From the NCBI GenBank assembly GCA_964016885.1, contig OZ024741.1, positions 276,458,001 through 276,522,000 of the forward strand: 64,000 nt of DNA. The letters run 5' to 3'. The notes under the pieces were generated by a model. That model did no database searches, was not told where the DNA came from, and saw only the letters and a list, made by a program, of their open reading frames with translations. This stretch comes from Eledone cirrhosa. Taxonomy: Eukaryota. This document shows, piece by piece, positions 4,819-55,991 of this stretch. The stretch's first letter is position 1; each line of letters starts with the position of its first letter. The translations under genes and the position numbers were made by a program.

Positions 4819-5121
4819 GACTTCCTCCCCCTCCCCTGTATCTTCTTTGACCTCATGCCCAGCTGTAGCTGGCACTACAAACGCTTGATTGGGGCTACTC
4901 CACCCCCTCCCCTCTTTCTCCTACTGGCAGGTTTAGCCACCATCTCCCCTACTAATTTGCAACCACAGAATTACTACTGATTTTTGACAATCACTTTGAC
5001 CATATATGGAATTACCCCTTGAGAAGATCGGCTATTTAAATACCAGGATAAATTTTCATTTAGTCCAGAATTAGCCGTCGAAACGGCTTGAGCTCAGCTG
5101 TCGGGGTCTTACTGGTTCCTA
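4819..5121 (+). repeat. 5' pseudo-LTR of PLE
   Basis: Near-identical to 8346-8652, with only a few substitutions and small indels. Confidence 0.93.
5014..5107 (+). ncRNA. Type I hammerhead ribozyme, U3:A8 core variant
   Basis: Stem I ACCCC/GGGGT; core TTGAGAA; stem II GA-t-CGGCTA/TAGCCG-TC; GAAA; stem III ACGGCT/AGCTGT with GAGCTC loop; GUC site (cut predicted after 5102). Confidence 0.78.
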
Positions 5122-5292
5122 TTACCCACTCTACTACCTCAAGTATTGAGTACTTTGGTGCGTTATGGTCCACCTGGTTCCTTACCACATTTCCTTCGTT
5201 ATCTAGCTCCTACCCCCGTAGTAGAGCACTTTCCGACCCTACCATGCCGCATCCAGACTTTTCCGCTAAGCCCAATTCATTTCACCCGCACC

Positions 5293-7439
5293 ATGCGAAA
5301 ACACAACATTGACTTCTCTACCAAGAACATCCCAATCCCACCGAAAAAACTTTACCTTCGGATGCTCACGCAAAAAAAATCGATCTATTTGCGAAAAGAC
5401 TTAGATGGAGAACTTTTTTCTATGACAGATATTGCGACAACCAAGACTTTGGCACCAAGGAGAGATTTGGATTTATTACCTACAAATCTCCGCCCCTGAA
5501 CCCCTTGCTCGCACCCTTCGAGAATGACCTCTTCCAACTGGTCAAGAACATTAAATTTAAACCCAGACACAACCGATTCCTACAAAAACTCCGTAGCAAC
5601 TTAACAGAGTATGATAACACAAATGACATCATGGTGCATTCGGATAAAACTGGGAACCTATACTTTGTCAACCCTGACAGATACCACACACTGATCAGGA
5701 GCAGCCTAAACTCCACCTATAAAAAGGCCAACCACTCTTGCATCAAGGACATAAATCGAGATGGACAACAAATCACCTCCAGCCTCGGGGTCGCCGACCG
5801 CACGGAACCTCTAGACCCACGGACACCATACTTCACACTGAAGGACCATAAATCCGATTTTGACCGTAAACCCTCTATCAGGCTTATTAACCCAACGAAG
5901 TCCGACATAGGGAGAATCAGCAAAAAAATCCTAGACCGCGTGATACCAAAAGTCAAGCAACACACCCGACTTAGCCTATGGATCAACACCCAGGAAGTAA
6001 TCTCCTGGTTCAGCAATATGGAGGATAAACGAGAAACTAAATTCATACAGTTCGACATAGAGAGCTACTATGCTTCAATCACCTTACCGCTACTTACTGC
6101 CGCCTTGGACTTCGCCGAAACACTTGTGCCCATCACCGACCAGGAAAGAAAAATCATCCTCCACGCCAGGAAGACAGTCTTACTCTTTGACGACTCTAAA
6201 TGGATAAAAAGAGCTCCCGACTCACCCTTCGACGTCAGCATGGGCGCCACGGATTCGGCGGAGGTCACAGATCTTATAGGATTATTCCTAATAGCCAAAC
6301 TCACTGATATGTTTCCTGCATTCGGTGGTGGATTGTACCGTGATGATGGGCTCCTTACCCTTAAAGGGTACAACCCCAGTAGTACAGATCGGGTCCAGAA
6401 ACAATTAATCAGATTCTTCCGCGACTGGGGATTTAAAATAACCCTGTACTACCCTGGATTTAAAATAACGACCTGTACTACCCATACAGGAAACCTAATG
6501 ACAATCTGCACTACATCCACCGCCGATCAAACCATCCTAGGAACATCACAAACAACCTGGTCAAAAACATCTCACTCCGCATATCCCGTTTGTCAGCTAA
6601 TGAGCGGATATTCGATGAACATGCGCCTTATTACAACCAGGCCCTCAAGCGGAGTGGTTTCCGGGAGGAAATATCCTACTGTCCAGCTCCCATTAGCGGA
6701 ACCAGCAGGAGACACCGCCGCTCACGCAATGTAACATGGTTCAATCCTCCCCACAAGGCAGAGGTGACAACTCCCATCGGGAAACTATTCTTTAGGCTCA
6801 TTGAAAAACACTTCCCATTACAACACCGCTACCACAACATAATTAACAAAAATACCATCAAACTCTCTTACAGCACTACACCAAACTTCGAACAAAACAT
6901 CGTCTCCTCTAACAACAAAAAAACTCAACCCCAATGGCAGAAATAACCTAAATAGCAGTGGAGAACCGACCAGGAGGTGTAACTGCCCGGATAGATCTAT
7001 TTGCCCACTCGACAATAGATGCAGAGACCGTAATGTGATCTACCAGTGCAACGTGAGGACGGATACCTCAAACAAAGCCTATATAGGACTTACCGCATGT
7101 GACTTCAAGACCCGGCTATACCAACATAGACATACCTTCCGAAACCCGGCCCAGCGTCACGCCACTACACTTTCGGGCCACATATGGGACCTCAAGGACA
7201 ATAACATCACCTATGATCTCACTTGGAGATTACTGTCCAGAGCCAATTCTTACACGGGAGGACGCCGTCCGTGCAATTTATGCTCGGAGGAAACTTTACA
7301 AATGCTGTTTTCGACGGACCAACTCCTAAACAAGAAAGATGAACTGGTTACTGCATGTAAACATAGATTGCGTAGGACTTACCTCGCCCTCAAACCCCAT
7401 AATGACCCGGGGGGGGGGGGGGGTAGACTAGGGCTATAA
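5293..7439 (+). pseudogene. PLE RT-GIY-YIG polyprotein, frameshifted (pieces in ORFs 5146-5499, 5505-6734, 6590-6946, 7035-7439)
   Basis: MRKHNIDFSTKNIPIP start; FDIESYY, MGA..SAEVTDLIG, YRDDG, NHP, WFNPP and YIG motifs. Frameshifts at the poly-A near 5375, at a deletion/microduplication near 6427-6480 (expected FLDV-type motif missing) and near 6920-6945. Confidence 0.88.
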
Positions 7440-8345
7440 CACCCCACTTGCCGATTTTGCAATGGGTAACCCCTGCTTGCCAAGGGAGACGTAAGATCTT
7501 CTTTGTATTCTTTTATCGCTTCCTTTATTTCCTTCCTTCCCCCTCTCTCTCCTTAGTCCTTCTACCCCAGCTCTTCTTTGTCGGCGTCTTTTCTCGCCCA
7601 CCCGAGGCTGCCCTTTGGCCCCTTGTAGCCTTAGTACCCCCCACCCCCTCCCCTAGTCTAGGATAGATTGGTGGACTCCGCCCTTTATAGCAGTTGGTTT
7701 AGACCCCGGATACTTGTCCCCTTTTTCCGACCGCTCCCACTACTCTGTGCCCTCTATATTTCTTAGTGGCACTTATGCCTTATTTTTTCGTTTCAGTATT
7801 TCTTTCTTCGCTTTTCTTTTGGGCGGGGTGGATTCTGAATTTATTCTTACGTATTCTACTTTTACTTCGTACAAACTTTCATGTAGCTTGTTTTAGATCT
7901 TTTAGAGCTAGCATTAGTATATATTTTTCTCGGGACTCAGAATTATTATCTCGTATTAGTTCACTTTGCTGCACTGGGTGGTTGCCGGAATTGTGCCCGG
8001 GATGGAAACCTTTATTGTTTATTTCGTGGTAGTCTCTTTAGTATTTTGGCCCCTTTTGTTGACCCGTCACCGTATCATTTACGTACTTATACCTCTTAAA
8101 AGGGTCCTCGCCTATTCCGTCCCACCTAGTTCTTTTACTTATTTCGTTATTTCTTTATTTCTTTCTTTACTTCTTTCTTTCTTTCTTTATTTATTTTTTC
8201 TAGACTAACAATAGCTAGAGACCTAGGTCGTAGAATTTAATTTACTTTACTTTTTTCTTTACACTCATTTGTTTTTCTTTACACTTATTTGCTTTTCTTC
8301 ACTCTCAGTATTATTTCTACCCCCCATTGTGCTACCTACCGTTCC

Positions 8346-55300: not shown

Positions 55301-55443
55301 TGGGGAGACCCAAGATGACTTGGGATGAGGTGATAAAAGCCGACCTTACCCAACTACACCTCTCAAAGTCAATGACACACGACCGTGACTTCTGGCGTCA
55401 CGCAGTAATACAGGGTACCCGACCTCCCATGGGTACATGCTGA
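52324..55443 (+). CDS. RTE LINE ORF: APE endonuclease plus RT with PHD-like insert (1039 aa, uninterrupted)
   Basis: GTINV, QETRW, GDFNGH, QLDFIL, SQH; DLEKAFD, QGSVLSP, YADD, CYLG, RLRWYGH, GRPKMTW. Confidence 0.96.
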   Translation: MNLRATKHPREAPTQRPSPTSVDKCPKLRVGTINVGSMKGRAGEIVEMLERKEVDVCCVQETRWRGGSARVLVGKSQCYKFFWVGNDDGMGGVGILLADKWVDKVISVYRVNARIIKLRLVLNKTITTIISAYAPQSGLPDELKDRFYESLIHTTALTDDKDFLIIAGDFNGHVGKHCDGFNRVHGGHGVGTRNEEGFRLLEFCDANDMSICNTNFKKPDNHLITYRSGEHSSQLDFILIRGRDRWTVLNTKAFPSEECTSQHSLVVSDLTVRTRRALKQRPTWRRKIWKLKVPSTSNRFKDILLNAYDSKEEQIETFNVEENWEFLKNNLLEATDEVCGWSKTSSRRRVTWWWNNKVDEAVKAKRQAWKEWKNGGSRVHYIETKREARRQVYLARREAEDRKFKHVLQREDQKQEVFKIARQCVRDSCDVIGEKCIRNDKGELALTSAEKKDAWKSHYDRLLNEENAWEEETLPHVDPIEGPAVQVSGSVVSKAIRDMKIGKATGPSGIAAEMLKASGSVGHTITTRIVNQVILEGAIPKDWCSSIIVNCYKGKGDALDRGNYRGIKLMDQVMKVTERVIAQLIRDRVNIDEMQFGFVPGKGTTDALFLVRQLQEKYLAKSKPLYLAFVDLEKAFDRVPRAVIWWALRKLGVDEWLVKAVQAMYRGAVSKVRIGNEYSEEFSVQVGVHQGSVLSPLLFIIVLQAITEEFKTGCPWELLYADDLALIAESMVELENKFQTWKQGLERKGLKVNMTKTKVLISRRENRTQIPSGKWPCSVCRKGVGRNSILCPKCKQWVHKRCIGISGSLIKNVGFTCSSCAETASKQPQETSTTNLWEGPVETVDIFCYLGDRISNGGGCSESTITRVRTGWKKFRELLPLLAAKGFSLRMKGRLYDACIRTAMLHGSETWALKVEDLRRLERNEACMLRWMCNSNIRERQSIKELRERLSIRGIKCCVQERRLRWYGHVMRMKDDSCIKRCRALEVDGNRGVGRPKMTWDEVIKADLTQLHLSKSMTHDRDFWRHAVIQGTRPPMGTC

Positions 55444-55797
55444 AGCATATAAACAATATGCCCCCCCCCACCGCAAGGTGGTCGTGGAGGTGCCACGGCA
55501 AAAAAAGCACCCAGCCCACACTGTAAAGTGGACGTGTAGGCGCCACGAAAAAGCACCCAGCACTCACTGTAAATGAGGTTGGTGTTAGGAAGGGCATCCA
55601 GCTGTAGAAATCAAGCCAGATCAGTTCCTGTATGAGCAAGGCATGGTCAGCCGACCAGACACTGCCCACAACAGGACAACCCGTCTAACCCATGCTAGCG
55701 TGGAAGAACGGACGTAAAACGGTGATGATGATATACGGTATGTTTAATAAATAAACATTTTGAAAGCCCAGCTATGAATATTGAAAGACTGATGGCC

Positions 55798-55991
55798 AGC
55801 GCCATCTAGTGAATTCCAGCAGAAACAGCGGGGGACAACTTTCTGTGCATTTCGAGCTACTGACTCTCATCAGGACACTGTTTCCCTGTTTTCTGCTGGA
55901 ACTTGAAAACAGGCAAAAATTCTGCCTTGTAGGTGGGCTGAGCCAATTTATACAGCTTTATAAGCAAATAAGGCTAATCAGCCCACCTACA
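55798..55991. other. Structured island: CTCF-like motif, two hairpins and a minus-strand hammerhead core
   Basis: AGCGCCATCTAGTG; TTCCAGCAGAAACAG/CTGTTTTCTGCTGGAA; TGTAGGTGGGCTGA/TCAGCCCACCTACA; minus-strand CTGATGA-GAG..CTC-GAAA-TGCA. Confidence 0.5.

Follow-up and report, generated by a model that had tools for sequence, protein, structure and literature searches.

Type I hammerheads and Penelope-like insertions in the window

The window analyzed here is a 64,000-nt stretch of Eledone cirrhosa DNA (assembly GCA_964016885.1, contig OZ024741.1, positions 276,458,001 to 276,522,000 of the forward strand; coordinates below count from its first base), in which a first-pass annotation had marked hammerhead ribozyme motifs at ten positions (5014, 8545, 16701, 20772, 21133, 24049, 24272, 24616, 44020, and 55850). 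We found hammerhead-like sequence at all ten, and all ten are real type I hammerheads. They sit in nine insertions, of which six are Hydra- or Neptune-type termini of Penelope-like elements (PLEs), five linked to PLEs through coding sequence and one through sequence likeness. The motifs at 5014 and 8545 mark the two pseudo-long terminal repeats (pLTRs) of one element, those at 24049 and 24272 belong to one inverted insertion, and those at 16701 and 44020 belong to one Neptune-type family. For the insertions at 21133 and 24616, no partner open reading frame (ORF) was reached, and the ninth, at 55850, is a decayed copy of a unit that is likely a retrozyme. The features, with families named by letter and clades placed by sequence motifs, are as follows.

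4823..8653, plus strand: full-length Hydra-clade PLE (family H) with two frameshifts and (TA)n on both sides
4823-5122 and 8359-8653, plus strand: pLTRs of family H, 97.7% identical over 300 nt
Cores 5019 and 8550, plus strand: U3-A8 hammerheads of family H, 3531 nt apart
5313-6734, 6464-6946, and 6843-7439, plus strand: ORF pieces of family H with RWR, DKT, CxCX5C, CxxC, and CxH motifs
16581..17231, minus strand: 5'-truncated Neptune-type 3' end (family N) with the last ~40 endonuclease codons and a minimal hammerhead (core 16734)
20726..20866, minus strand: old Hydra-type PLE 3' end (family C), hammerhead decayed at two core positions, consensus core canonical
21060..21300, plus strand: family B, with 9-bp helix I, ~100-nt domain II (87 nt here), and PLE-style ends
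23999..24470, both strands: head-to-head pair of Hydra PLE termini (family E), cores 24106 (minus) and 24280 (plus)
24530..24800, plus strand: old terminus (family D), hammerhead split by a ~140-nt domain II, long AT-rich upstream region
25041..25224, both strands: two truncated head-to-head termini (half hammerheads) of a family H sister, in (TA)n, with a ~90-nt tail on one
42785..44165, plus strand: 5'-truncated Neptune-type PLE (family N) with thumb, GIY-YIG with CCHH, and a minimal hammerhead (core 44025)
50742..50806, minus strand: short terminal-domain remnant of family A without hammerhead (BLAST and profile matches)
55730..55999, minus strand: decayed copy of family A, with a direct arm (55730-55920) across the predicted cleavage site and an inverted piece (55939-55999); core 55873
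60029..60089, minus strand: short, weak terminal-domain remnant of family A (BLAST match; profile E = 0.008)

A strict descriptor of type I hammerheads (CUGANGA core or its U3-A8 variant, helix I of at least 5 bp, helix III of at least 3 bp, domain II of at most 170 nt) matched seven times in the window (cores 5019, 8550, 16734 on the minus strand, 21142, 24106 on the minus strand, 24280, and 44025). Shuffled sequence, which had been named beforehand as the refuting test, did not reproduce similar counts (0.29 ± 0.57 matches, maximum 3, in 100 block-wise dinucleotide shuffles). The motifs at 20772, 24616, and 55850 fail this descriptor because of point changes in the window copies. Their family consensus sequences, built from 25, 25, and 30 genomic copies, respectively, form complete hammerheads with core, helices, and cleavage triplet, and these three are decayed members of families with a canonical consensus. 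The core CUGANGA (or U3-A8) ... GAAA ... UH is intact in 7 of the 10 window copies and, for the other three, in the consensus only. Across the window motifs, helix I has 5–9 bp and closes over the cleavage site, and helix III is palindromic in five of the seven descriptor matches; the two family H copies have a palindromic loop. Helix II is weak in the 21142 copy but paired in its family consensus. Domain II measures 54 nt in family H, ~100 nt in B, and ~140 nt in D. Rfam scans of the window and eight family loci returned 99 and 106 matches, none of them to a hammerhead family and consisting only of hairpin or microsatellite microRNA noise; long domain II or minimal helix III probably explains these misses. 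The hammerhead class is assigned from core and helices, and self-cleavage is predicted.

The density of these motifs had been called extraordinary, which the genomic background does not bear out. We sampled this 3.0-Gb genome (1796 contigs) at even intervals, in 60 stretches of 10 kb (599.8 kb in all). The descriptor matched 54 times there, or 5.8 per 64 kb, against 3.9 matches per 600 kb under a block-wise Markov null. Because resampling of this background gives P(>=7 per 64 kb) = 0.31, the hammerhead density of the window is typical for its genome. Extrapolation suggests roughly 250,000 intact motifs genome-wide, a rough figure since the matches are clustered. At least a dozen further hammerhead families were seen in the background sample (L269-L328), many with a 60–115-nt domain II and differing palindromic helix III.

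Families H, E, and C have hammerhead-bearing pLTRs and insert into (TA)n; a tail at one end, inverted arms, and a preference for (TA)n are hallmarks of PLEs and of Hydra elements, and the one-sided tail has been described for PLEs (PMC8557442). The Hydra signature is complete in family H and in a full-length family E element at locus L258. Family C shows thumb and endonuclease (EN) fragments only: at L063/L261, Hydra thumb and EN lie upstream on the same strand, and same-orientation EN matches occur also at L078 and L080. Sequence comparison gave 85% identity for this family. The two family E arms in the window are 95% identical to each other, end ~78 nt apart within the element, and are 96–97% identical to both pLTRs of the L258 element. 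By their motifs, H, E, and C are Hydra-clade elements and N is Neptune-type. The two N copies share 81.5% identity over 670 nt (16581..17231 versus 43508-44154), with tblastn and descriptor support; in the longer copy, a stop breaks the CX4CxxC linker, and Pfam recognizes GIY-YIG (E = 2e-7). An assignment of 4823-8653 to Naiad was ruled out by its C-terminal EN with Hydra motifs.

Family H is very young, with intact copies, and we take a Hydra PLE in this genome to be active. From 31,143 candidates, 141 copies were scored; they are 98–100% identical, and about 60 have open frames of at least 780 aa. Its copies include tandems with a 3.53-kb period and head-to-head pairs. The half-motifs that had been noted at 25119-25224 are part of the sister insertion at 25041-25224, whose arms are 89.6 and 83.3% identical to 5062-5200, within the end of the 5014 element; the same form was seen in background loci. 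The H and E insertions have one long and one short arm, like the loci of a 312-nt family described below.

For families B and D, the search for a partner ended without an ORF: the upstream walk from B (~0.55 kb) stopped at a microsatellite, and that from D (~1.2 kb, of which more than 1 kb is AT-rich) reached none. Both show PLE-like tails and inverted arms, and each is likely another old PLE end, B perhaps a non-autonomous one. Family B has 1402 genomic candidates and an optional ~190-nt tail. In the window copy of D, the core lies near 24620 with C3 changed and the second half near 24750, as judged from the consensus of 25 copies, and one family D copy elsewhere abuts an inverted Hydra reverse transcriptase (RT) fragment. 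A Neptune-like EN near a B cluster was ruled out as the partner of B, as it has its own hammerhead and end. Head-to-tail wrapping of B is apparent at one local cluster only and was not counted as independent. That cluster (L263-L265, G000:C1 309.61-309.64 Mb) contains tRNA-like sequence and a ~1.1-kb unit, with the apparent wrap running through microsatellites.

Several of the motif-bearing islands had been described as lacking coding sequence and as lying between or near microsatellites, and the whole as a community of ribozyme-bearing retroelements. Several families do colonize (TA)n/(CA)n tracts, but the 55850 copy is not microsatellite-flanked, the 16701 island carries the last codons of a GIY-YIG ORF, and the majority of the islands are PLE ends of the ordinary kind, either 5'-truncated or inverted. 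The proposed check of linking each family to a PLE ORF succeeded for H, E, C, and N, with the islands at 20772 and 24272 linking to Hydra ORFs elsewhere in the genome, but at the loci sampled the units of family A and of the 312-nt family are not contiguous with one.

Non-coding units of family A and its 312-nt sister

A non-coding retrozyme-like family had been suspected among the islands, and the one at 55850 is indeed a copy of such a unit, 339 nt long (family A). The unit wraps onto itself, its own downstream sequence being found upstream of the hammerhead. It is non-coding (longest ATG ORF 65 aa; GC 41%), and as a circle it folds far better than shuffled sequences (z of -8.5 and -11). The window copy is less than one unit long and 90–92% identical to the family monomer. 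In 13 of the first 30 loci, the copy exceeds one unit, the longest reaching 707 nt (2.1 units) with two hammerheads. After 21 of 85 loci were dropped as duplicates, 64 distinct loci were left; in this sample of top matches, no copy runs on into a sense PLE ORF within 1.5 kb. The 3' ends of the main arms gather at two registers separated by ~35 nt (27 of the 64 loci at one, 22 at the other), and 15 loci have a head-to-head arm. The family is old, with copies 80–94% identical to the consensus.

PLE fragments near family A copies were rejected as partners, as they lie on the opposite strand, downstream, or beyond a microsatellite, and a family A match at 24452-24531 was ruled out as microsatellite noise. 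At G000:C4 144.54-144.59 Mb (L217-L229, L268), a segment of ~3.4 kb is tandemly repeated about 15 times, and every repeat contains a copy of family A together with a Hydra EN fragment on the opposite strand. Within the family A unit (window 55800-55813), there is a sequence that we take to be close to the CTCF-binding consensus and another that resembles an octamer motif; both may be promoter-related.

A 312-nt family outside the window was first met in a background stretch, as an array with intact hammerheads (L296:1946-4123, G000:C3 ~328.002-328.004 Mb). It has 528 candidates, its units are 98–100% identical, and it is non-coding (GC 35%; longest ATG ORF 34 aa). We examined 39 of its top-matching loci (L356-L393 and L296), of which L371 and L386 may be one duplicated insertion, and none of the 39 is contiguous with a PLE ORF. 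Head-to-head double arrays make up 34 of them; their arms are 0.15–22 units long and begin, on the 5' side, at points all along the monomer. At 30 of these 34 two-armed loci, the arms end near positions 141 and 168, 27 nt apart; three differ and one ends in a gap. Almost all outer ends adjoin (TA)n. Variants fixed in every unit of both arms were found at 10 loci, and at four of these the variant is shared with no other of the 39. On average, units differ by 0.72% within an arm, by 0.86% across the two arms, and by 1.07% between loci, and in the 22-unit arm at L356 variants are present in subsets of units. Contigs from three sequencing runs (kind unrecorded, one sample) cover the 312-nt unit, a match that is uninformative on expression.

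The A and 312-nt units share with a ~316-nt unit a ~75%-identical domain located at the insertion ends, and the hammerheads differ among all three. This third retrozyme-like family was seen at L266:1160-1540 and also at L077, L082, L276, and L325; at L266, its copy is joined to part of a truncated Hydra element in inverted orientation.

A candidate mechanism and its alternatives

We consider it probable that the window holds nine type I hammerhead insertions at genome-typical density, mostly Hydra- and Neptune-type PLE termini, and that one of them is a copy of a non-coding 339-nt repeat. This repeat is likely a retrozyme: its hammerhead is predicted to cut it, it is likely circularized, and a Penelope enzyme is the likely agent that copies it into TA tracts. 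A multimeric transcript would cleave itself, as a dimer through palindromic helix III, and the cleaved monomer would be ligated into a circle; retrozyme monomers of coral, mussel, and axolotl have been shown to circularize (PMC7229834). A PLE GIY-YIG endonuclease would nick a (TA)n tract on both strands. The RT would prime twice, at two template registers (separated by 27 nt for the 312-nt unit, ~35 nt in A, and ~80–90 nt in H and E). It would then make 0.2 to more than 6 circuits of the template, and a head-to-head junction would form between the two cDNAs. The paired arm ends, which resemble those of PLE insertions, and the fixed variants support, but do not prove, such PLE-driven rolling-circle copying. 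The most obvious candidate for the helper is the young family H, on grounds of its age and target only; no sequence link to it was found.

About even trust can be placed in a broader reading. The genome, with its ~250,000 hammerheads, would harbor a lineage of at least three ~310–340-nt retrozyme families that share a terminal cis-domain and in which ribozymes were swapped or rebuilt, and the currently active member would be a direct record of the PLE reaction: a single RNA circle primed at two sites 27 nt from each other and reverse-transcribed by the rolling-circle mode at each strand of a TA target, with the products joined head to head.

Several observations weigh against the main reading. 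Cleavage, circles, and expression of the retrozyme RNA are predictions from sequence. A microsatellite lies within 24 nt of the 3' end at only 33 of the 64 family A loci, an intact core and cleavage site are kept in only 13, and the window copy is predicted to be inactive. The loci examined are the best-scoring ones (40 scored of hundreds to thousands), such that a rare autonomous partner of A could escape and multimers are over-sampled. The shared-domain profile matched no PLE 3' end among the loci examined, which makes a PLE helper a candidate only, and the fixed variants could also come from a linear multimer made at a homogeneous source locus. Clade assignments of H, E, C, and N rest on motifs rather than a tree, with the RT core missing from the N copies in the window; Pfam recognized no Hydra RT or EN piece (five of six PLE pieces had no match), and B and D were tied to no PLE ORF in the upstream walks.

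Among the alternatives, local expansion would require no circular template: monomers would be inserted singly or from linear multimers, and arrays would grow by unequal crossing-over. Such a model, with local amplification favored, has been proposed for vertebrate retrozymes (10.64898/2026.07.22.740005), and the subset variants of the L356 arm, together with a within-arm distance only modestly below that between loci, are in its favor. We nevertheless consider it unlikely, given that arrays are dispersed at dozens of young loci, that both opposite-strand arms are multimeric with common fixed variants and paired end registers, and that copies cross the cleavage site repeatedly. It is improbable, too, that all motifs, including 55850, are terminal repeats of an autonomous PLE with a tandemly repeated 3' end and that no separate retrozyme exists, since no sense PLE ORF was run into at any of the 64 family A or 39 sister loci, arms of up to 22 units contain the unit only, and their 5' starts fall across the whole monomer. 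This explanation draws on the six of nine insertions that are PLE ends, the PLE-style ends of family A, and the scoring of only the top 40 candidates per search.

A local cause that makes the window a special hotspot for ribozyme-bearing elements is very improbable. Five insertions do lie within 20.7–25.2 kb, the microsatellite content is about twice that of the background, and BLAST with four common families defined in the window (A, E, H, and N) gave nine real matches versus 3.2 expected, up to about a 3-fold excess that is ascertainment-biased as these families were picked because they are present here. A modest local excess is possible, but the greater number of TA targets accounts for it, and the unbiased descriptor count (7 versus 5.8) shows none beyond sampling. 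Chance matches in AT-rich DNA, which the Rfam result and the three copies failing the strict descriptor could have suggested, are refuted by the shuffles and by the position of every motif as the conserved center of a multicopy family with complete consensus helices.

Neighboring features and relation to known elements

Besides these insertions, the window contains two intact ~1030-aa ORFs (34904-37975 and 52321-55443, both minus strand) that we take, from their motifs, to be RTE-like elements without long terminal repeats, with APE endonuclease and RT. Truncated copies, presumably also RTE-like by the same motifs, are located at 12041-13488, 17771-18499, 41370-42968, and 58485-60244. A 49-bp tandem satellite (~94 copies) fills positions 1-4616; some of its units have a CTGATGA heptamer and no hammerhead. 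Kilobase-long imperfect (TA)n tracts at 8651-11650, 13930-16584, and 18500-20684, one with an assembly gap, in some cases follow PLE or RTE ends. A perfect hairpin of ~90 nt (63402-63492) pairs CTG/CTA with TAG/CAG trinucleotide runs.

Families H, E, and C resemble Hydra-clade PLEs, including the catalogued Hydra-1_Obim, for which a (TA)n preference is recorded, in the RWK-like motif (RWR here), DKT, CxCX5C, and the CxxC and CxH of the EN, and have in common with this clade the pLTR hammerhead, (TA)n targets, inverted 5' arms, and a tail at one end (PMC8557442). However, the elements here are 3.5–4.3 kb long with long 3' untranslated regions, compared with less than 3 kb in that clade; their tails measure 78–90 nt rather than 30–40 nt (PMC8557442), and H is very young and abundant. 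Their hammerheads are unlike the one listed for Hydra-1_Obim, whose motif differs from all motifs in the window. The first-pass annotation had allowed that every island might map to a catalogued PLE; the families proved distinct from the Hydra-1_Obim hammerhead, a comparison that covers that entry only. Family N shares with Neptune-clade PLEs the C-terminal GIY-YIG with CCHH, a CX2-5CxxC linker, microsatellite bias, and a minimal hammerhead; its RT core is absent in the window copies, and its placement is by motif only.

Like the hammerheads of metazoan PLEs, those described here are type I with the U3-A8 variant and palindromic helix III, occur mostly solo or as opposite-strand pairs, and belong to many families per genome (PMC4209133). 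They differ in domain II (54, ~100, and ~140 nt) and in number, with ~250,000 extrapolated compared with 9,000 minimal motifs in Xenopus tropicalis (PMC4209133). For axolotl, up to 120,000 motifs are given in the literature.

The A and 312-nt families resemble metazoan retrozymes without long terminal repeats in their ~310–340-nt non-coding tandem units, type I hammerhead, GC of 34–41%, folded circle, and co-occurrence with PLEs (PMC7229834; 10.64898/2026.07.22.740005). Unlike the known ones, their insertions are multimers arranged head to head in (TA)n, and the end registers come in pairs. Three families also share a terminal domain, whereas animal retrozymes are described as having no conserved motif that points to a helper (PMC7761336).

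Hammerheads of PLEs, Hydra elements of octopus, and retrozymes of animals have all been published before. A literature search limited to openly accessible papers listed no report of cephalopod hammerheads or retrozymes. What is new here is the retrozyme families with their informative insertion architecture; the window itself is largely ordinary for its genome. Since long-domain-II hammerheads are missed by Rfam, ribozyme counts in such genomes are underestimated. The mobilization of animal retrozymes by PLEs via circular RNA has been proposed, but not shown, in the literature at hand. Young dispersed insertions, PLE-specific end chemistry, a shared terminal domain, and a putatively active Hydra element make this proposal directly testable. 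If the proposed mechanism is true, the active retrozyme family and the Hydra PLE would provide a matched template-enzyme pair for studying how retrozymes move and how the pseudo-LTRs, inverted arms, and one-sided tails of PLEs originate.

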